39,210 nucleotides of DNA from Firmicutes bacterium UBA3567 (GCA_002376045.1 DFNM01000195.1:1-39210), one strand, 5' to 3'. Shown: positions 1 through 24,327, numbered from the stretch's first letter. Numbers and translations: made by a program. The notes: a model not told the origin generated them from the letters alone.

Positions 1-1186
1 GCGCCATCAGGCGGTCTACCTTTGTTTCATCCACCCGGATGCTTTTACTCGCAGCAGCAGGAGCAGAAACTTTCGTTCCTTCAGGTTTTCCAGGTCCAGC
101 TGCAATTGAAGTGCCTTCTTTTACAGCCAAACTCCTGGCCATTTTCTCGGCTGCATCAAGGAGTGAAAAGAGTTCTCTCTGTTGTTCAGAACCCGGCTTA
201 TCCAGGAGTTCTTCCGCTTTCTTCAGCTCAAATCTGTTGAAATAATTACCAATCCCTGCCAGGATTCTGGCTACAGAAAGACCATACCGCGGAAAATTTT
301 CCCGGCTCCACGGTTGTCCGAGGTATTCTCTCAACTGGGTCAGAATCAATTGTAAAACTTCTGCTTCCCCCTGATTCAACTGGATATCAGGAGGAGAAAC
401 CGGTTTTTCTTCCACCCGGGACGTCTTTTCTTTTTCACCTGAGTTCTCCGGACCGACATCTTCCGCCCCGGCACAGAGCTCACCTGTTTCCCCAAAAACC
501 GGGCAAACAGTCAGGCGCAGGTCAGGCAAATCTCCTAAAACTTCAGCAAGCGCATTTTCCAATGTACGTGTACTGATGTCAGATCTAAGATAAAAATGCA
601 GGGACAAGAAAGAGGGCATATCCCTCCCTGGGTCAGTATCCAACTCTCCTGCCCCGCTTACCACAGCGCGAACCACCTTTCCGCAGGAAGCCAGCTTTTC
701 ATAAACTGCCAGCAGATTAAGCGATTCGGACGAAGCACACATCTCCAGGCTCACTTCATAAACGCATTCCCCGGGTACCATTTGCGCGGCTGTTTCCGGC
801 ATCTGTGAAACATCGGTCGAACTGGTTTTACTAAACAACTCTTCCAACTTCCCAATCCTTTCCCAGCATGTTTTTTCATCCACCTGCAGCTTGCCTTCTG
901 TTTCTGCTTTTTCCACAACTTCCAGCAAAAACTCAAGGGCACTACTGACAACTTCGGCAAACTGCTCCGATGCATCAATCTCCCCCGTTTTTACCCCCTT
1001 CAGCACCTCAAGCAACCGTTTAGCCAGCTCGTTCAGGACATCATATTCTTTGGTATGTTCTACCAGGGCCTTCATTTTTTCTAAAAGCTGATCAAGTACA
1101 TGGCTATCGGGTTTGCGGACCAGAGAGAAGACTAAAAATCCAGTTTTGTCAAGAACCTCTTTGATTTTTTCCAAAATTTTGTTCAT
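1..1186 (-). CDS. cheA: Chemotaxis histidine kinase CheA, N-terminal part (HPt-like bundle, P2-like segment, start of dimerisation domain); rest of the gene lies beyond the window start
   Basis: Absent from the ORF track because it runs off the edge. The reverse complement from the ATG at 1186 reads MNKILEKIKEVLDK... with no stop and ends ...SKSIRVDETKVDRLMA, which matches the RVDxxK(L/V)DxLM signature that opens the CheA P3 domain. It has an HPt-like helix ALVEHTKEYDVLNELAKRLLEVL. It sits 9 nt downstream of cheY in the che operon. Confidence 0.75.
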   Translation of the reverse strand, partial: MNKILEKIKEVLDKTGFLVFSLVRKPDSHVLDQLLEKMKALVEHTKEYDVLNELAKRLLEVLKGVKTGEIDASEQFAEVVSSALEFLLEVVEKAETEGKLQVDEKTCWERIGKLEELFSKTSSTDVSQMPETAAQMVPGECVYEVSLEMCASSESLNLLAVYEKLASCGKVVRAVVSGAGELDTDPGRDMPSFLSLHFYLRSDISTRTLENALAEVLGDLPDLRLTVCPVFGETGELCAGAEDVGPENSGEKEKTSRVEEKPVSPPDIQLNQGEAEVLQLILTQLREYLGQPWSRENFPRYGLSVARILAGIGNYFNRFELKKAEELLDKPGSEQQRELFSLLDAAEKMARSLAVKEGTSIAAGPGKPEGTKVSAPAAASKSIRVDETKVDRLMA

Positions 1187-1195
1187 TTTCACTTA

Positions 1196-1567
1196 TTACC
1201 TCACTCCAGCAATAATCTTAGTTAGAAAAAGAAGCCTTTCTGGCTTTACCGGTTTTACCAGGAAGAGGTTGGCTCCGGCTCGATATCCTTCCAGGCGGTC
1301 GCTGTCCTTTGCTTCTGTCGAGATGATTATCACCGGCACCCCAACCCCTCTTTCATCCTCTCTAAGCTGCCGCACCAGTTCATAACCTGACATCTTGGGC
1401 ATGTTTATATCCACAATGAAGAAGTCGTAATCAAACTTTACCGCTTTTTCCAGTGCTTCATAACCGTTGGCTGCATGGTCCACAGCAAAACCGGCTTTGC
1501 TTAAGATGGAAGTGTAATAACCCCGTACTGTAGATGAGTCATCCACCACCAGTATGTGTACGCTCAT
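1196..1567 (-). CDS. cheY: CheY-like single-domain response regulator
   Basis: 123 aa. Receiver motifs are present: ILVVDDS, DFFIVDINMPKMSG (phospho-acceptor Asp), PVIIISTE, FLVKP. It has a GAGG RBS and lies between cheR and cheA. Confidence 0.9.
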   Translation of the reverse strand: MSVHILVVDDSSTVRGYYTSILSKAGFAVDHAANGYEALEKAVKFDYDFFIVDINMPKMSGYELVRQLREDERGVGVPVIIISTEAKDSDRLEGYRAGANLFLVKPVKPERLLFLTKIIAGVR

Positions 1568-1579
1568 GTCTTTTTCGCC

Positions 1580-2395
1580 TCACTTTTGATATATAATTGC
1601 ATTCTTAAATTTCCTCAACCTGAAAATAGGTGTAATGCGGCTCATGGATTCCGAGTGCCCGAGGAAAATGTAACCGCCTTTCCTCAGGGCATCGTAAAAG
1701 TAAAGGGCCACTTCTCTGCGTGAAGAGTCGTCAAAGTAGATGAGAACGTTGCGACAGAATATGACATCAAAGTCCACCATCTTCCGCATGTTTTCCCGAT
1801 CCAGAAGGTTGAGTTGATAAAAGTATATCTGCCGGCGCAGTTCTGAACGTATCTCGAACTGTTCACCCATACGTCGAAAATAACGGGCAAGGTAAACCTC
1901 CGGAACGTCTTTGACAGCGCGCCTGCCGTAAAGTCCTTTTTTTGCCTGCAGCAGCACATCTGTATTTAAATCGGTGGCGTGAATTTCCCACGTAACGGGC
2001 ATTCCCCCGGTCATCTCCTTTATGATGATGGCTAAAGTGTAAGCTTCTTCCCCCGTTGAACACCCGGCAGACCAGATGCGTATTCTTTTGGAATTTTGGT
2101 TGTTTTTGCCCTTCAGAATCTCGGGTATTACTTCTTCGGCAAAGCAGCGCAGCTGCTGATACTCCCTGAAAAAGTAGGTCTCATTGACAGTCAGGGCGTT
2201 GAGAAGCTCCTGCAGCTCACGGCCAGAGGTATCAAACCGCATCCAGGCAAAATAGGCACGGAAGCTATCCACGCCGATGGAGCGCATACGCGCTTCCACG
2301 CGTTTTTCCACGTAGTAAAGTTTCTTTTCATCAAAGTAAATCCCGACCTTGCGGTAGATGTAATCCCGAAGCTTAACGAATTCTTCTATAGTCAA
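1580..2395 (-). CDS. cheR: Chemotaxis protein methyltransferase CheR
   Basis: 271 aa. It has the SAM-binding motif RIWSAGCSTGEEAYTLAI and the CheR-typical VNETYFFRE and FCRNVLIYF. TTG start with a GGAGGG RBS 6 nt upstream. Confidence 0.93.
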   Translation of the reverse strand: MTIEEFVKLRDYIYRKVGIYFDEKKLYYVEKRVEARMRSIGVDSFRAYFAWMRFDTSGRELQELLNALTVNETYFFREYQQLRCFAEEVIPEILKGKNNQNSKRIRIWSAGCSTGEEAYTLAIIIKEMTGGMPVTWEIHATDLNTDVLLQAKKGLYGRRAVKDVPEVYLARYFRRMGEQFEIRSELRRQIYFYQLNLLDRENMRKMVDFDVIFCRNVLIYFDDSSRREVALYFYDALRKGGYIFLGHSESMSRITPIFRLRKFKNAIIYQK

Positions 2396-2460: not shown

Positions 2461-3039
2461 CTATACCTCCATCTTTCTTAAAGCGACCTCAACCGCATAT
2501 TCCAAAAAAGGATCGGAAAAACGTTCCGCCGCTTTTCGAACTGTTTCCCGGTCATCGCCGCGCAAGCCCATTTCGCCCAGGTATTCCACCGCTGCAGCCA
2601 CCACATTGACATCCTCATCCTCTTCCACTACCCGGCACAAAAGTTCCACTGCCTCCTTGACCTTCAGTTCTCCCAGGACATTCACGGCAAAAAGTCTTAC
2701 ATCCGGGTCAGGGTCCTGCAAGAGCTCCTTGACTACACCCAGTGATGTATGCTGCAGCAGCTGAAGCACCTCTATCGCCGAATTCCTCAGGTAGGCATCT
2801 TCACTGCGCAAAAGCTCAGCACACCGCCTTACCACAGCCTCCGTACCGATTGTAATAAGGGTGCTGACAATGGCTTCCTGTACGGCACGGCTTTTCTCTT
2901 CTACCAGTCTGTTTACCAGATGTTCCACCACGTCTTCCCTGGGAAAATCGGAAAGTTCCATGGCCGCATAGCGTCTCTCCCTCTCTTCCGGGTGGGTGGA
3001 TAGAATTTCCATGAGCTTTTTGACCTTGCTGGTTTTCAA
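2461..3039 (-). CDS. HEAT / PBS-lyase-like repeat protein embedded in the che operon
   Basis: 192 aa of repeated helix pairs: (D/E)xxVRxxAxxALGxxG-like units such as DPDVRLFAVNVLGEL, DAYLRNSAIEVL and DVNVVAAAVEYLGEMG. The TTG start overlaps the cheB stop (TTGA), with an AGGAG upstream. Confidence 0.8.
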   Translation of the reverse strand: MKTSKVKKLMEILSTHPEERERRYAAMELSDFPREDVVEHLVNRLVEEKSRAVQEAIVSTLITIGTEAVVRRCAELLRSEDAYLRNSAIEVLQLLQHTSLGVVKELLQDPDPDVRLFAVNVLGELKVKEAVELLCRVVEEDEDVNVVAAAVEYLGEMGLRGDDRETVRKAAERFSDPFLEYAVEVALRKMEV

Positions 3040-4088
3040 TTTCTCTTCACTCCTTTAATGATTTGCTGGGCAATGCGATAGGACGGAGCTACCACCTCGG
3101 CTCCTCCTCTGAGGTAAGTCTCCCTGGGCATACCCCAGACCACCGCAGTTTCTTCCGCTTCAGCTATGGTGTAGCCGCCGCGTTTTCTTATTTCCACCAT
3201 CATATCCGCTCCATCATCACCCATACCTGTAAGTATTACCCCTACTATATCCCGGGGAGGCACTTTTTCTAAAACTGACTGTATTGTTATATTAACCGAA
3301 GGAACATATAAAGCACCCGCCGGCTGGCGGCTGAGCCTGGTTACCAGCCCACCACCGGTATTCTTTTCTATTTTTAAATGATAGCCCCCTCTGGCCACCA
3401 AAACCTTTCCCGGCATTAATTCATCACCATCTGCCGCTTCTTTGACGGCTACCTGGCAGCTCTGGTCCAGGCGCCGGGCAAAAGATGCCGTAAAGTTTTC
3501 CGGCATGTGCTGCACTACCAGCACCGCTGCCGGGAGGTCCTGGGGCAGGTAGGGCAAAATATCCATAAGGGTACGGGGACCTCCGGTCGATACCCCAATG
3601 ACCACCACTTTCAGCGAATGCTGCCCGATACCCGACCTGAATCGGGGACGAGGTGGCCGGGGAGCCAAAGCATGTGCCTTTTCCGGCCGGCGCGGCCTTA
3701 ACTTGGCCCGTGCCGCTGCTTTAACCTTTGCTATAAGCTCTTCTTTGAGCTGTTTTATGCCGAGGGAAATCGTCCCTCCGGGTTTGCCCACAAAATCCAC
3801 CGCACCCAGCTCTAAAGCTTCCAGTGTGGTGAAGGCACCCTCCTGGGTGAGAGAAGAAACCATAATCACCGAGCAGGGTGCCTTAAGGAGGATGTACTGG
3901 AGGGCAGTGAGGCCATCCATCACAGGCATATTCACGTCCATGGTAACCACATCAGGTCTTAGCTCCAGTGCCTTTGTTACTGCCTCTTTACCGTCACGGG
4001 CAGTATCCACCACCTCTATTTGATCATCTGAAGCAAGCATTTCCATAAGGATTCTCCTCATAAGAGCAGAATCGTCAGCTATCAACAC
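3036..4088 (-). CDS. cheB: Protein-glutamate methylesterase CheB (receiver + methylesterase)
   Basis: Receiver domain (RVLIADDSALMRR, DVVTMDVNMPVMDG) plus methylesterase domain (VVIGVSTGGP, VVQHMP, LTGMGDDGA). The track ORF extends to 4169, but that extension overlaps the cheW gene and is non-homologous. GTG at 4088 has an AGGAG 8 nt upstream and gives the canonical MLIADDS start. Confidence 0.9.
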   Translation of the reverse strand: MLIADDSALMRRILMEMLASDDQIEVVDTARDGKEAVTKALELRPDVVTMDVNMPVMDGLTALQYILLKAPCSVIMVSSLTQEGAFTTLEALELGAVDFVGKPGGTISLGIKQLKEELIAKVKAAARAKLRPRRPEKAHALAPRPPRPRFRSGIGQHSLKVVVIGVSTGGPRTLMDILPYLPQDLPAAVLVVQHMPENFTASFARRLDQSCQVAVKEAADGDELMPGKVLVARGGYHLKIEKNTGGGLVTRLSRQPAGALYVPSVNITIQSVLEKVPPRDIVGVILTGMGDDGADMMVEIRKRGGYTIAEAEETAVVWGMPRETYLRGGAEVVAPSYRIAQQIIKGVKRN

Positions 4089-5607
4089 CCGTATTCTCCT
4101 GGAGTTCCACGTTCTGCTCAAAGTCTGCCAGCTCCTCCTTTTCTCTAAACGATAGGACTTCCTTAACATTCAACACGATGATCAGCCGCTCGCCTTCTTC
4201 TGCTTTAGCTATTCCCCTGACAAAGCGGCTGTCTACCGAAGCGGTCAGGAGATCCGGCGCTGTTTCGATGACCTTACGGAAAACCTTCAGCACTTCCTGC
4301 ACCGAGTCAACGACAAGACCGGTCAAAAGCCCGTCCATCTCTACTACGACGACTTTTGTGTACTCATCCCTGGATTTTTCTTCCATCTCGAATCTTTTTC
4401 TGAGGTCGATTACAGGGATTATGGTTCCGCGAAGGTTAATTACCCCTTCAACAAACTGCGGAGCTTTGGGAACGGCCACTATATCCGGAACCCTGATGAT
4501 TTCCCGAACATCAGCGATGCCGGCTGCAAATTCTTCTTCACCCAGCTTGAAAATCACCAGCTGTTCTTCCTGTTCACTGGTATTGACCACTTCTCCTTCT
4601 TCTTCGCTGTCCAAAACCCCACCCACTTTCAGGAGGTCATTTAAGGCAAGAAAACCTGTCGGGTCAAGCACGTATACCAGCCGCTTGCCTTCTGCCATCT
4701 TGCACACTCCATTTATTCCTTCACCACTCCCGGTGCGCAGCAGCACCGGTACGGGGTCAATAATCGCTCTGGGAATGCGGAGCACCTCTGTCACCTCATC
4801 GGCTATCAGACCCACTGTAACCTCCCCTTTCCGCTGATCGTAAAGGTTCACCACTACTATACGCGTTCGGTCATTCACTTTACCATCTTCCAGTTTGAAA
4901 AGGGTTCGCAAGCTGACCACCGGCAGAACCCGGTTCCGAAGGGTCATAATTCCAACAAGATAAGGGGGGGCATCGGGTAGCCGGTTAATGTTCTCCGGCA
5001 TGTGGACAATCTCCTGCACCATGCCTATGTCAATTCCGTACTCCTCTTTCCCGAGCCGAAAGGCGACGAGTTGAACTTTGTCTTCCTCTTTTTCTTCATC
5101 TTTTTTTTGTTCTTCTGTTCGTGTAAACCCCTGGGATTCAACGGTATCTGCTGTCATACCCCCGTTTTTCCCGATCTTCATAAAGTGAGCTACATCCATT
5201 AACATTATAAGGTGTTCGCTTCCAGCCAGCCTGGCTATCCCCTTGAGAAACTCTGTCCTGGCCTCACCCTCCCTAACCTCTTCAATTTCATCAGCGGCTA
5301 TGTTTACCACCTCGGATACTCTGTCCACAATGAAACCCAGCCTTTTCTGGCCGTCGTCCAGGACTATAACCCTGCTGGTTTCGTTCAGGGGCTTCTTTTC
5401 CATACCAAGCCTGACACTCATGTTCACTATGGTGAGAATGTTTCCCCGCAGGTTGGCCAGCCCTTCCAGATAGGGCGGGGTGCGGGGAACCTTCACCATC
5501 CCAGGGACACGAATTATCTCCTGGACAAACTCGATTTCCACGCCATAAGCTTCGCTGCCTACATAAAAGACAACATACTGCCCGGCAGCCCGTTTGTTTT
5601 GCTGCAC
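4075..5607 (-). CDS. cheW: Scaffold protein with three tandem CheW domains
   Basis: 510 aa. Three collinear CheW-like modules start at QYVVFYVGSEAYGVEI, VQLVAFRLGKEEYGIDI and EQLVIFKLGEEEFAAGI. Each is followed by PxxP(Y/F)(L/V)xG(I/L/V)xNLRG-type and (I/V)VDxVxEV motifs. GTG start with a GGAGGGA RBS. Confidence 0.88.
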   Translation of the reverse strand: MQQNKRAAGQYVVFYVGSEAYGVEIEFVQEIIRVPGMVKVPRTPPYLEGLANLRGNILTIVNMSVRLGMEKKPLNETSRVIVLDDGQKRLGFIVDRVSEVVNIAADEIEEVREGEARTEFLKGIARLAGSEHLIMLMDVAHFMKIGKNGGMTADTVESQGFTRTEEQKKDEEKEEDKVQLVAFRLGKEEYGIDIGMVQEIVHMPENINRLPDAPPYLVGIMTLRNRVLPVVSLRTLFKLEDGKVNDRTRIVVVNLYDQRKGEVTVGLIADEVTEVLRIPRAIIDPVPVLLRTGSGEGINGVCKMAEGKRLVYVLDPTGFLALNDLLKVGGVLDSEEEGEVVNTSEQEEQLVIFKLGEEEFAAGIADVREIIRVPDIVAVPKAPQFVEGVINLRGTIIPVIDLRKRFEMEEKSRDEYTKVVVVEMDGLLTGLVVDSVQEVLKVFRKVIETAPDLLTASVDSRFVRGIAKAEEGERLIIVLNVKEVLSFREKEELADFEQNVELQENTGVDS

Positions 5608-5621
5608 AAACCATCCCTCCT

Positions 5622-7559
5622 CTAAAGCTGCTGCAGCTCGTCTGCCAGTGCAGCTATCTCTTCAGCAGCTCTGGACAGCTCTCCCATTCCCTGGGCCTGC
5701 TGCCTGCTGGCACTTGCAGCCTGTTCAGAGGCCGAGGCTGCTTCCTGGGCTGCCTGGGCAATTTGCTCCACAGCCTTTTTAACCTGTTCGGCAGCAGCTG
5801 CCACCTGGGCCGCACTTTCAATTAATTTTCTGGTTTTATCCAAAACCATCTTTATGTCCGCTTCAATACGCACCAGGTCTTGAGTAGTCTTTTTCGCCTT
5901 TTCTACCTCCTGACTTGTTGCTTCTCCTATCTCTTCAATGTCCCTTAATACCATGCCAACCTGACCCTGGATGTTCTTCACCAGCTCCTTGATCTGCTCG
6001 GTGTTACGGGCGCTCTCCTGAGCCAGGTTGCGGATATCGGATGCAACCACGGCAAACCCCTTGCCGTACTCACCAGCTCGGGCCGCCTCAATAGCCCCAC
6101 TGACTGCCAGCATATTGGTCTGGATGCTTACAGTATTAATTGCCTCCACTATCTTATCTATCTGCCTTGCCCTTTCTTCTAAAGCCTCAACCTTCCTGGC
6201 ATTTTCAACATTGGCCTCCAAAGCCCCAGAAATCCCTTTAATCAGTTCATCAATGCTGACTTTGTTGCGGGTCTGGACCTCAGACAGTTTTTCTACCTTC
6301 TCCTCGACAACTTTTGCCAGTTCATCAATTTGCCTGGCCCTGTCTTCTGCCTGGCCGGCGGCACTGGCACACTCTTCTGCTGCCATTGCCTGAGTTTGAG
6401 CTCCTTTTGAAATTTGGTCCAAGGCAGCCATGATTTCCTGGGCAGAGCGGGTAGACTCCTCAATCGCCGCTGAAAGCTCCTCCGCTGCGGCGGCCAGGCC
6501 TTCTGCCGATTTGGAAACTTCAGTAGACCTCATGAGGTCTTCACCCATTTCGGCCAGCTCACTTGCCGCTGTGCTGATATCGCTTAAAGCTCTTGTCTGC
6601 TGTTCCACCGCTTTTAATGCTTCCTCCGCCCCACTGGCCTGTTCCTCCGCTGCCCTGGCAATTTCACCTGCTCTCTGCCGGAATTGTTGAGCGCTGCGTA
6701 CAGATTCCTGAGAAGCATCATAAGCCTCTGTCACTGCTTCAAAAACGTCTTGCATAGCGCCAGCCGCTTCTTTCAACTCTTTGGTAATTACTTTGCCTTT
6801 CTCCGCTTCTTGCCGCGCATTGGCGGCAACCTGGTTAATGGCATCGGCCACCACTTTGACATCCTGCTGGATGGCCTGGATAAGCTCGCGGATGTCGTTG
6901 GCTGCCTTCTCTGATGTTGCCGCTAGAGTTCTTACCTCATCCGCTACCACAGCAAACCCCTTGCCGTGATCCCCGGCCCGGGCCGCCTCAATGGCAGCAT
7001 TAAGGGCCAGGAGGTTGGTCTGGTCGGCAATTTTTACCACGGTACGCACAATATCTCCAATGTTTTCTGCCTGCTTCTCCAGCTCAGCTACCAGTCTGGC
7101 CGAGCCTTCATTCCTCTCACTGGCAGCATTAACACCATCTATTAGTTTTTCGATATCGGAATTTATTTCTTTCATTAAAAACTGAACGGTCTTTGCCCCT
7201 TCTGAGATCTCAGAGGCATTCTCCCCTGCTCCTTGAGCTCCTTCGGTCGCTTGTTCAGCAGCTGCCAGCGTCTCCTGGGTGGCGCTGCTGGCCTCCTCAG
7301 CCCCACTGGCTATTTGCTCCATAGCCGACCTCAGTTCCTCCACTGCCCCGGATGCTTCTTCTACTCCGGCGGAAAGCTCTTCGGTAGCTGCGGCGATCCG
7401 TTCAGCTATCTGCTGCTGCTTGGCAAATGTCCTGGCCTTTCTGCGCTGAGTTTCAAGCTTCTTTTTCTCAACCTTCTTCAACTCAAAATTCGCTTTGTTC
7501 TCGTTCTTTTGGTCCTCTGCCTTTGCTGGCAGCGGTGCCAACTTTCTCTCCTCAACCAT
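5622..7559 (-). CDS. Soluble methyl-accepting chemotaxis protein with two signalling (hairpin-tip) domains
   Basis: 645 aa, with no hydrophobic segment anywhere. Two copies of the MCP tip motif are present: [37 protein letters not shown] and [40 protein letters not shown] start with an AAGGAGG RBS. Confidence 0.9.
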
Positions 7560-7793
7560 TAAACAATACCTCCTTAAATTTTATATTAATTTAATTTTTT
7601 TCATATATGGTCATTCCATTAACTCAACAGCTTTCTTCCAATCTGCTTATTTGCAAATAAAGCAGGGAAAACTTTTGATTTTTCAAATTGATTTCCATAC
7701 TAAGTGGTAAGGCTTAACTTTTTAGCACGCACTTCAACCTAGAAAAAATTTTGCTGAGTTAAATGCATAACCATATAAATTTTTAAATTTTTT

Positions 7794-8390
7794 TCATACA
7801 TACAAAGCTCTTCTGTCTGCTTTTAATCTACCGGCACGTGTCGACCCTGTCTCCCACATGCTGCGGAACACCTCAAACACTGCCGGATCAAACTGCCCTC
7901 TGCTTTCTGCCATAATCTCTAAAGCCCTACCGGGTTCGACCGGTCTGCGGTAAGGCCGGTAGCCGGTCAACGCCTCAAAGGCATCAACAACGGCAATCAT
8001 TCTGGCTACTAAAGGTATCTCCTCTCCTGCCAGGCCGTATAAATATCCATCACCGTCAAATCTCTCGTGATGGTAGAGAGCACCCATTATTATTTCTTCC
8101 ACAAACCCCAGGCTTTTGAGCAGTATTCCACCAATGTGAACATGTTGCTTCATTTCCTCCCGGTCAGCTTCGGTATATCTCTCACGGGACTTAAGCAGCC
8201 GGTCGGAAATGCCGATTTTGCCAATGTCGTGCAGAAGCCCTGCCTTATAGAAAGTCGATACCCTCCCTTCCCTCATGCCCCAGGTTTCTGCTAAACGTGC
8301 TAAATGATTTGCCACTTTGCGGCTATGGTCTGCACTCACCCGGTCTCTGGCCGCCAGGGCAAAAAAAAGTACTATGTCATATCCTACCAT
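7794..8390 (-). CDS. HD-GYP domain protein (probable c-di-GMP phosphodiesterase, stand-alone catalytic domain)
   Basis: LLHDIGKIG and HHERFDGDGYLYGL motifs. The track ORF starts at 8459, but the ATG at 8390 (MVGYDIV...) has GGAGGAATTTT directly upstream, and the extra 23 aa look non-homologous. Confidence 0.85.
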   Translation of the reverse strand: MVGYDIVLFFALAARDRVSADHSRKVANHLARLAETWGMREGRVSTFYKAGLLHDIGKIGISDRLLKSRERYTEADREEMKQHVHIGGILLKSLGFVEEIIMGALYHHERFDGDGYLYGLAGEEIPLVARMIAVVDAFEALTGYRPYRRPVEPGRALEIMAESRGQFDPAVFEVFRSMWETGSTRAGRLKADRRALYV

Positions 8391-8459
8391 AAAATTCCTC
8401 CATTCTAATATAAAAAAACAAATAAATTTGCTACCGCCTTTCAACAAGATTCGCTGCAA

Positions 8460-8678
8460 TTACGCTAATCCTGTAAAAACATTTTTTTGATATGTTCTGG
8501 CATTCTGTTGTTTTTTCTCTTTTTTTTTATTTTGGGTTACAAATCCATACTTTTTCAAATACCTTTGTATGGTCCTGCGACTAACTTTACATATCAACGC
8601 TATTTCTTCACAGCTCAGTTTTTTTTCGATGTATTGTTTTCTCAGCCACTCTTTATCCCAGTATGGTTGCAACTTCAA
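8460..8678 (-). CDS. Small helix-turn-helix protein (mobile-element-type HTH)
   Basis: 72 aa. The motif WDKEWLRKQYIEKKLSCEEIALICKVSRRTIQRYLKKYG is a typical short HTH module seen in phage/IS-associated proteins, followed by a Lys-rich tail. It lies in an AT-rich region and no clear RBS was checked. Confidence 0.45.
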   Translation of the reverse strand: MKLQPYWDKEWLRKQYIEKKLSCEEIALICKVSRRTIQRYLKKYGFVTQNKKKEKKQQNARTYQKNVFTGLA

Positions 8679-13229: not shown

Positions 13230-13970
13230 ATGGTATTAAAATTTGATAGACAAGAAATCGGTGAGGATGATATAACTAATGCATTTCCTGAAAAAATCAG
13301 TGGTAAAGAATGGATAAAATACTCAATTAGTGTATGGGATGATTATAAAACCAAAGAAGAAAGTTTGTATAAGCATCCCGCATCTTTTCCTGTTAATCTA
13401 GTACATAAATTAATTCGAATATACACAAAACCTAAAGAAATAATTATTGACCCGTTTATGGGTATGGGAAGTTCTTTAGTTGCAGCCGCCAAGTTAAACA
13501 GGCGAAGTATTGGTTTTGAGATTAACAAGGATTTCATTAAAACCGGGTATAGTAGATTGCAAAAATACAACTGTCAATTTAAAATCATTGACGACTCTTG
13601 TTTAAATATTGAAAACTATATACCGGTCAATTCTATCGATTTTTGCATTACTTCACCACCATATTGGAATATTTTAAACCGCAAACGTAGTGCCGATTGT
13701 AAAAAAATCAGAAACTACGGTAATGAGAAAAGAGATTTGAGTAATATAAAAAGCTATGACAAGTTTCTAACTCAAATACAAAAAGTATTTTCAAAAATTT
13801 ACATACTACAAGAATTATCACATGCAAATATTATCAATTTTGGGTTTAAAAAACACAAATTATGCAACCCTAAAAATAAGGTAATACGTAAACGCAAACC
13901 AATTAATACGGATGAACATTCTTCTAACTTACCTGTTAAAATTCGAGGAATTCACTTCAACGCATTCTAG
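13230..13970 (+). CDS. N4/N6 DNA methyltransferase (SPPY catalytic motif, so possibly m4C), orphan and possibly C-terminally degenerate
   Basis: HPASFPVNLVHKLI...IIDPFMGMGSS (motif X + motif I) comes before DFCITSPPYW (motif IV). The last ~50 aa are Lys-rich and show no recognisable motifs. The gene lies in a visibly AT-rich block. Confidence 0.72.
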   Translation: MVLKFDRQEIGEDDITNAFPEKISGKEWIKYSISVWDDYKTKEESLYKHPASFPVNLVHKLIRIYTKPKEIIIDPFMGMGSSLVAAAKLNRRSIGFEINKDFIKTGYSRLQKYNCQFKIIDDSCLNIENYIPVNSIDFCITSPPYWNILNRKRSADCKKIRNYGNEKRDLSNIKSYDKFLTQIQKVFSKIYILQELSHANIINFGFKKHKLCNPKNKVIRKRKPINTDEHSSNLPVKIRGIHFNAF

Positions 13971-23266: not shown

Positions 23267-23524
23267 TTATTTATAATTAGATATGTAAAAATACTCTTTA
23301 GATGTTTTATAGTTTTTATCCAACTTATAACAAAACACCTCATCAAAATTTGTTTCTTTTAAATACGTATACATCTCTAAAAGATTTCTAAAAGCATCTT
23401 TAGCGTCTATTCCCGATGAAAATCCGATCACTTGCAAATTATCAATATCTGGTAAAATAGATTCTGAATTGGGTTGAAATGTATATCCTTCAATTGTTAA
23501 AAAAATATAATTATTTATATCCAT
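23267..23524 (-). CDS. Hypothetical 85-aa protein, translationally coupled to the upstream HKD nuclease gene
   Basis: Intact ORF whose ATG overlaps the last 10 nt of the nuclease gene. No family was recognised. Same AT-rich composition as its neighbour. Confidence 0.6.
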   Translation of the reverse strand: MDINNYIFLTIEGYTFQPNSESILPDIDNLQVIGFSSGIDAKDAFRNLLEMYTYLKETNFDEVFCYKLDKNYKTSKEYFYISNYK

Positions 23525-24327
23525 AATTTCATATACCTTCCTTTACCTAAAAATTTTATTAACCCTAAATCCCTAAGGTTTTGCAGTTGCTGTCGTATTT
23601 TTGCTTCGATGTTTTGATTTTCCGGATATATACATTGGAAATAGGCCTTATATTGATAGACATCGTTTAATTCAAAGATAAACTTATCAATTTTGTTTAT
23701 TTGCTTAAATACTGCTAGCTTCCAACCTGAAAGGCAACTTTCTATAGTTTTCACGCCCCCAGTATATAAGTCATCTTGCGGAATATCCTTACCAATAAAG
23801 CTATCTAAATTTATATTATGAGGAAATTTGTACTTTTTTTCTGTAGGAATATTACTAAGAATATCACTAACAGTATTTACAATTTCTTTAGTAACCTCAC
23901 CGCTAAATTCACTGCAGAAAATAGAATTAAAATCTTTACATACCTTGTCTACAAAAACATAATCATTCGAAAGAATACCATACTCATAATTGTAGCTTAA
24001 TCCATAATTTGTAAGATTAGCCGAGGTCACAATAACTACTTTTTTATCAAAAATACAAATTTTAGCATGCAAATTTTGGTAATTTCTTACCCTTCCGTTT
24101 TTATCTAAAATATAATCTATTGCTTCAATATCGGAAGCTCTTTTATAAAAACTTGAAAGATTAAAATTGGTAATTAGATCAAAATCCACCTTCTCCTTTT
24201 TATATTTGTAGATTTCTTCTATAACATCGTATTTGATAAAAGGAGAACAAATTTGAATACTCTCGATTGTTCCAGAAACACATTGTATAAATTTATTTTT
24301 CCATGGGCTATTAATAATTTCTAACAT
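23515..24327 (-). CDS. Phospholipase-D (HKD) superfamily nuclease with a C-terminal winged-helix-like domain
   Basis: A single exact HKD motif, HAKICIFDKKVVIVTSAN, fits HxK-x4-D-x6-(G/T)SxN. The C-terminus AKIRQQLQNLRDLGLIKFLGKGRYMKLW resembles the DNA-binding winged helix found at the ends of many restriction endonucleases. Confidence 0.8.
   Translation of the reverse strand: MLEIINSPWKNKFIQCVSGTIESIQICSPFIKYDVIEEIYKYKKEKVDFDLITNFNLSSFYKRASDIEAIDYILDKNGRVRNYQNLHAKICIFDKKVVIVTSANLTNYGLSYNYEYGILSNDYVFVDKVCKDFNSIFCSEFSGEVTKEIVNTVSDILSNIPTEKKYKFPHNINLDSFIGKDIPQDDLYTGGVKTIESCLSGWKLAVFKQINKIDKFIFELNDVYQYKAYFQCIYPENQNIEAKIRQQLQNLRDLGLIKFLGKGRYMKLWI

Follow-up and report, generated by a model that had tools for sequence, protein, structure and literature searches.

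Genetic organization of the locus

The window, a term used here for the whole stretch of 39,210 nucleotides of Firmicutes bacterium UBA3567 DNA that was analysed, carries a tightly packed minus-strand operon encoding a chemoreceptor, hereafter designated DosM, followed by CheW3, CheB, a HEAT protein, CheR, CheY and CheA. No second MCP gene was found within these 39,210 nucleotides. GerM and YheC/D genes occur elsewhere in the window, and the host is a spore-former. The features of the locus and of the dosM coding sequence are the following:

2..1192, minus strand: 5' part of cheA, with 397 codons visible before the window edge cuts the gene; 55% identical to the N-terminus of Desulfofundulus salinus CheA
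1196..1567, minus strand: cheY, a single receiver domain (Pfam Response_reg)
1580..2395, minus strand: cheR (Pfam CheR and CheR_N)
2461..3039, minus strand: HEAT-repeat gene, 192 aa (Pfam HEAT_2, E 2.8e-27)
3036..4169, minus strand: cheB, REC domain plus methylesterase (Pfam)
4075..5607, minus strand: cheW3, 510 aa, with 3 stretches matching Pfam CheW (E 1.4e-98); starts 14 nt past the dosM stop codon
5622..7559, minus strand: dosM, first gene of the operon, an ORF whose 645-aa product is a soluble chemoreceptor carrying two signalling domains (Pfam MCPsignal, 2 stretches)
5628..6506, minus strand: signalling module 2, aa 352-644, made of N-arm, tip 2 and C-arm (ungapped self-alignment)
6030..6122, minus strand: tip 2, aa 480-510, a derived tip (column statistics, 65 homologues)
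6507..6527, minus strand: inter-module junction, aa 345-351, STEVSKS, with the conserved motif S-T-D/E-x-x-K-S
6528..7406, minus strand: signalling module 1, aa 52-344, made of N-arm, tip 1 and C-arm (ungapped self-alignment)
6930..7022, minus strand: tip 1, aa 180-210, the canonical MCP hairpin tip, invariant in 65 homologues
7569..7575, minus strand: Shine-Dalgarno sequence AAGGAGG, 9 nt before the dosM ATG at 7559 (direct reading of the sequence)
7794..8459, minus strand: bare HD-GYP (HD_5) gene directly upstream of dosM (Pfam)

A 234-nt spacer lies upstream of dosM, and a scan of positions 5500-8600 for promoters and terminators gave no convincing minus-strand sigma-70 match in this spacer, with counts no higher than those obtained with shuffles.

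Architecture of the receptor

The dosM product is built of signalling domains and nothing else. Pfam searches detected no sensor domain, the sub-threshold matches to TMP_3 and DUF948 being coiled-coil noise, and the Kyte-Doolittle hydropathy averaged over 19 residues peaks at 0.95. This value is far under that required for a membrane helix, and the protein thus has no transmembrane segment, which bears out an earlier reading of the sequence (the first-pass annotation) that had noticed no hydrophobic segment. Searched as a whole, the protein matched Pfam MCPsignal (PF00015) in 2 stretches (E 1.7e-68). With a gathering cut-off of 34.6 bits for this family, the N-half searched alone reached 130.9 bits (E 5.8e-38, residues 157-300) and the C-half 115.8 bits (E 2.5e-33, residues 454-602), so that the two separate MCPsignal matches foreseen by the first-pass annotation were indeed recovered. 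The two domains belong to a longer repeated unit, since residues 52-344 aligned with residues 352-644 over 293 aa with 0 gaps, 36% identity and 61% positives (E 4e-63). The protein is accordingly laid out as N-arm 1, tip 1, a tip-to-tip centre of about 300 residues composed of C-arm 1 and N-arm 2, tip 2, and C-arm 2. Methylation-consensus motifs were found at the EE/QE/EQ pairs 60/61, 67/68, 74/75, 88/89, 95/96, 360/361 and 612/613, several of these Glu/Gln pairs being nearly invariant across alignments of the DosM family.

The two tips are regularly spaced and closely related, yet they are not the same. The EAARAG motif recurs at residues 191 and 491, and this spacing of exactly 300 aa was found in the window protein and in the 3 other homologues for which it was counted. 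The first-pass annotation had reported the MCP tip twice, about 300 aa apart, and both 31-residue peptides that it quoted are exact, at residues 180-210 and 480-510. The repeat that it placed at DNA level around 6046-6125 and 6946-7025 is also real: positions 6043-6123 (tip 2) and 6943-7023 (tip 1) form an 81-nt repeat, 79% identical, with copies 900 nt apart. Tip-specific residues occur at seven positions (D179/I479, L183/M483, L186/V486, A188/G488, E208/D508, V209/I509 and T211/N511), and at all seven the residue is at least 89% conserved within its own tip among 65 homologues from several phyla. This asymmetry may be new relative to the published descriptions of DosM.

Comparison with known receptors supports the view that each module is a hairpin. 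The best sequence match in the PDB was the cytoplasmic domain of Thermotoga maritima TM1143, in which residues 12-297 of 3JA6_H and 13-297 of 2CH7_A aligned with residues 54-346 and 54-345 of module 1, respectively (E ~1e-25 for both). Because this alignment covers the whole length of the TM1143 hairpin, one module corresponds to one complete receptor hairpin. TM1143 (PDB 2CH7, 3JA6) has a single hairpin combined with membrane and sensor parts, whereas the window protein consists of two hairpins alone. Each module spans 293-300 aa, or about 42-43 heptads, and module 1 shows a net difference of 7 residues from the 309-aa TM1143 construct; F9 signalling modules are assigned to heptad class 44H in a supplementary table (PMC9321776). 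In the 65-sequence family alignment, a hydrophobic periodicity of 3.5 residues extends from about residue 39 to about residue 630 through both arms of both modules. The heptads flanking the second tip, on which the first-pass annotation had made its reading depend, are therefore present, and the amphipathic pattern of the N-arm reaches upstream to about residue 39, past the duplicated unit.

The region where the two modules meet departs from this regularity. Within the junction, all 16 sequences compared share T346 and K350, and since 300 equals 43x7-1, the heptad phase is shifted here by about one residue. An AlphaFold2 monomer model computed with the 65-sequence alignment (mean pLDDT 88.2, pTM 0.60) is all-helical apart from the N-terminus and the junction: residues 1-24 are disordered, 25-344 and 348-644 form helices, and the helix is broken at 345-347, where pLDDT dips to 78. 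With this three-residue helix break and the one-residue heptad slip, the coiled coil of the central segment is not continuous, and the junction could be a hinge or a mid-plane contact site of the rod discussed below. Foldseek superposed one module of the model on 2CH7_A over 297 columns with an rmsd of 5.0 A. For a tip, the superposition on the Tsr tip fragment of E. coli covered 99 columns with an rmsd of 1.2 A and 38% identity, and the model thus contains true hairpins at the tips. The TMq values, 0.36 against the bare hairpin 2CH7 and 0.45 against full-length receptor models, fit extended and folded-back arrangements alike, because one well-fitting module is enough to explain them.

Relatives of DosM and origin of the cluster

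A search of 5.8 billion proteins, in which candidates of 356-1,130 aa were considered, returned more than 7,600 matches to the dosM product at E<=1e-10. The 120 matches listed are about 640 aa long, about 50% identical to the query, and cover 78-100% of it (most of them 94-100%) in at least four phyla. They include proteins of Rhodocyclus, Geoalkalibacter, Geomonas, Methylobacter, Desulfobulbus, Thiorhodococcus, Terracidiphilus and a Verrucomicrobiota MAG, and the closest among the matches listed are those of Desulfofundulus sp. TPOSR and D. salinus (77%). All are labelled in the database only as 'methyl-accepting chemotaxis protein', so that a correct annotation of these proteins is one gain of the present analysis. 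A scan of genome contigs with generic tip peptides identified true double-domain receptors at 5 of 80 loci (L001-L005), and no Vibrio cholerae locus was among these 80.

The gene neighbourhood is shared as well. Two Acidobacteriota genomes have the operon DosM-CheW3-CheB-HEAT-CheR-CheY, and the F9 operon was also found beside homologues in a Clostridia MAG, in Microvirga (without the HEAT gene), in D. salinus and in Geoalkalibacter. The operon proteins of D. salinus are 75-89% identical to those of the window, with the exception of the CheA N-terminus, for which the value given above is distinctly lower.

The receptor after which the gene is designated, DosM (VC1403), is reportedly encoded in V. 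cholerae chemotaxis cluster I, of class F9 (Briegel et al., 2016, PNAS). Both this protein and the window protein are soluble and consist of two tandem MCP signalling domains with nothing else, and in both cases an operon opens with DosM and continues with a concatenated triple CheW, CheB, an extra gene, CheR, CheY and CheA. DosM, with its tandem double signalling domains, and CheW3, with three concatenated CheW domains, are the signature pair of class F9, and 98% of DosM homologues have nothing beyond the two signalling domains (PMC9321776). Of 2,781 representative species, 64 possess a full F9 cluster; the distribution is sporadic and shaped by horizontal gene transfer, and the full class was recorded in 15 of 492 Firmicutes species in the S5 Table of that study (PMC9321776). 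The S6 Table gives the gene order of V. cholerae as [DosMW3B.RYA.YM] and that of Thermoanaerobacter wiegelii, Caldanaerobacter and Anoxybacter as [DosMW3B.RYA]; Clostridium, Paenibacillus, Caldicellulosiruptor, Carboxydothermus, Heliorestis, Syntrophomonas and Syntrophothermus are listed there too (PMC9321776). The window, with its order M-W-B-(x)-R-Y-A entirely on the minus strand, equals [DosMW3B.RYA]. Double-signalling-domain receptors, their pairing with a triple CheW and their presence in Firmicutes have thus all been published.

A direct link to the published family is provided by T. wiegelii Rt8.B1 WP_014063478.1, which is catalogued as DosM and shares a table and a DosM+CheW3 tree with V. 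cholerae WP_001185438.1 (PMC9321776). This protein of 644 aa comes from another lineage than the 645-aa window protein, has an equal operon order, and is 59% identical to it over 641 residues (99% of its length) with 3 gapped positions. The likeness of the window protein to VC1403 rests on that published table and tree (PMC9321776). Desulfofundulus, the genus of its nearest relatives, is absent from the published F9 list (PMC9321776), to which a Desulfofundulus-like lineage of spore-formers can now be added, together with evidence for horizontal transfer from codon third positions (GC3, see below).

The history of the duplication was addressed with a maximum-likelihood tree in which 19 double-domain proteins of Bacillota, Pseudomonadota, Acidobacteriota, Verrucomicrobiota and Thermodesulfobacteriota were split into 38 halves and combined with 12 single-domain MCPs from the contig-scan loci. 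All N-halves formed one clade (SH-aLRT 90) and all C-halves another (99), with one change per label, and the 12 single-domain MCPs fell outside both. Sub-clades of Bacillota and Proteobacteria were mirrored in the N and C clades, and each half of the window protein paired with the corresponding Desulfofundulus half. Because N- and C-halves form separate clades, the signalling domain was duplicated once, before the gene reached these different lineages, which makes the window protein an orthologue, inherited or transferred. Taken with its architecture and operon, the dosM product is very probably an orthologue of DosM, the class F9 double-signalling-domain receptor, and would act as a sensor-less staple between two baseplates. 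The stem branch of the C-module clade is long, 1.12 versus 0.39, and this length, together with the fixed differences between the tips, indicates that the two ends of the staple are under separate conserved constraints.

Base composition suggests how the cluster may have reached this genome. The 8 genes from cheA to HD-GYP have a GC3 of 0.46-0.57 and a GC content of 0.47-0.53, and the other 21 ORFs of the window (at least 150 aa) have a GC3 of 0.24-0.44. The GC3 of the che cluster is thus foreign to the window, which suggests horizontal transfer, fairly recent and perhaps from a Desulfofundulus-like donor, given the 75-89% identity of the D. salinus proteins outside the CheA N-terminus. Such a foreign GC3 fits the published picture of frequent F9 transfer. 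ORFs 13230-13970 (plus strand) and 23515-24327 (minus strand) stand out from their neighbours by a very low GC of 0.30 and 0.28, with a GC3 of 0.26 and 0.24, and may be small foreign islands of their own.

Alternative readings, proposed role and variable genes

Several other explanations of the double tip have to be weighed against orthology with DosM. The first-pass annotation had likened the protein to DosM and considered it an independent Gram-positive analogue. The comparison was right, but independence is not supported, given the tree of the halves, the operon, the identity with the T. wiegelii protein and the published occurrence of the class in 15 of 492 Firmicutes species. A Bacillota MCP that duplicated its own signalling domain and converged on the DosM architecture would suit the spore-forming host, and this is all that speaks for it. 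Convergence is very hard to reconcile with a single N-half clade and a single C-half clade across five phyla, whose Bacillota and Proteobacteria sub-clades mirror one another, with full-length identities of about 50% to proteobacterial, acidobacterial and verrucomicrobial proteins, with a seven-gene operon that recurs across phyla, with tip-specific substitutions common to the whole family, or with a cluster GC3 foreign to the window; we regard it as highly improbable. An assembly artefact, or a recent and functionless tandem duplication of an ordinary soluble MCP, might be suspected from the 81-nt direct repeat with its copies 900 nt apart. Yet the halves are only 36% identical at the protein level and the best-conserved DNA stretch 79%, the architecture of about 640 aa recurs in the 120 homologues listed, and numerous invariant positions occur in each half, which leaves this explanation with a practically negligible probability.

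A different question is whether the orthologous chain really spans two layers. The protein might instead make a U-turn at the S-T-D/E junction, with hairpin 1 lying beside hairpin 2 in an intramolecular four-helix bundle that would bring both non-identical tips to one end, one tip specialised in trimer contacts, its partner in binding CheW/CheA. The helix break at 345-347 with its pLDDT dip to 78, the one-residue heptad slip located exactly at the junction, the conservation of the junction motif and the tips that differ at fixed positions in 65 homologues are all compatible with such a single-chain pseudo-dimer. The tomography published for the homologue in V. cholerae is at odds with this arrangement. 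The AlphaFold2 run was that of a monomer, which cannot represent a homodimer, and a pTM of 0.60 despite a pLDDT of 88 gives no sign of a confidently packed compact bundle; a fold-back of this kind is thus quite improbable. A somewhat broader proposal, unlikely but less so, is that the tips are not interchangeable, DosM being either a polar staple between baseplates of differing composition or a fold-back, single-chain asymmetric dimer. If the polar staple were true, the baseplates might differ in their CheW3 domains, or kinase rings might face kinase-free ones, and either version would lead to a revision of the symmetric-sandwich picture of F9 arrays.

The preferred reading remains that of an extended staple. 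DosM has been described as an extended rod bearing one signalling domain at either end, inserted in both CheA/CheW3 baseplates, and as the structural scaffold of a two-layer cytoplasmic array (PMC7534058). By extension from this V. cholerae cryo-tomography (PMC7534058), a homodimer of the window protein would be a single long four-helix rod whose two ends are the tips; two CheA/CheW3 baseplates would face each other, and each would take up one of the tips into its trimers of dimers. By analogy, DosM would then act as both the staple and the ruler that hold the two-layer array together. A straight tip-to-tip helix of 300 residues measures about 44 nm. A supplementary table gives the value 35 for the V. 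cholerae F9 array (PMC9321776), which we take to be the distance in nm from one baseplate to the other; on a rough estimate, the two figures would agree with CheW/P5 rings placed a few nm above each tip. Since DosM has no input domain, signals would enter elsewhere, via other soluble receptors sharing the lattice or via baseplate proteins. The conserved Glu/Gln methylation motifs, and the presence of CheB and CheR in the operon, suggest that DosM may also be an adaptation substrate. A non-pathogenic anaerobe carrying a compact cluster of seven genes of the [DosMW3B.RYA] type is possibly a convenient system for studying the physiology of F9 arrays.

Within and around this conserved framework are several genes that vary among F9 clusters. 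The HEAT gene between cheB and cheR holds the same slot in the F9 clusters of Acidobacteriota, Desulfofundulus and Geoalkalibacter, with 29-78% identity. The Microvirga cluster lacks it, and in that of the Clostridia MAG (L003) it is displaced to a position immediately upstream of cheR, about 4 kb past cheB. The HEAT protein occupies the unnamed slot '.' of the published order DosM-W3-B-.-R-Y-A. Differences are also found downstream of cheA. V. cholerae has a trailing CheY-MCP pair, none being visible in the window, which ends inside cheA, and the Geoalkalibacter cluster continues with CheA-x-CheY-MCP, like that of V. cholerae. In D. salinus, the closest relative, cheA is followed not by a V. 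cholerae-type Y-M pair but by an Hpt-P2 gene: its CheA of 781 aa matches Pfam P3-P4-P5 only, and a separate gene of 313 aa encodes Hpt plus P2 (L081, 16358-19663). No Pfam hit for an Hpt domain was obtained in the 397 N-terminal CheA residues visible in the window. The sequences thus compared suggest that the F9 kinase of this lineage may be split into two proteins, in which case the second gene would fall past the window edge. At the other end of the cluster, the position of the HD-GYP gene in D. salinus retains only a 37-aa stretch resembling the HD-GYP N-terminus (L081, 9856-9966), and a REC-HD_5 gene ends the F9 cluster of Geoalkalibacter (L083, 21840-21920). HD-GYP phosphodiesterases, as predicted from these domain matches, recur, unstably, beside F9 clusters.
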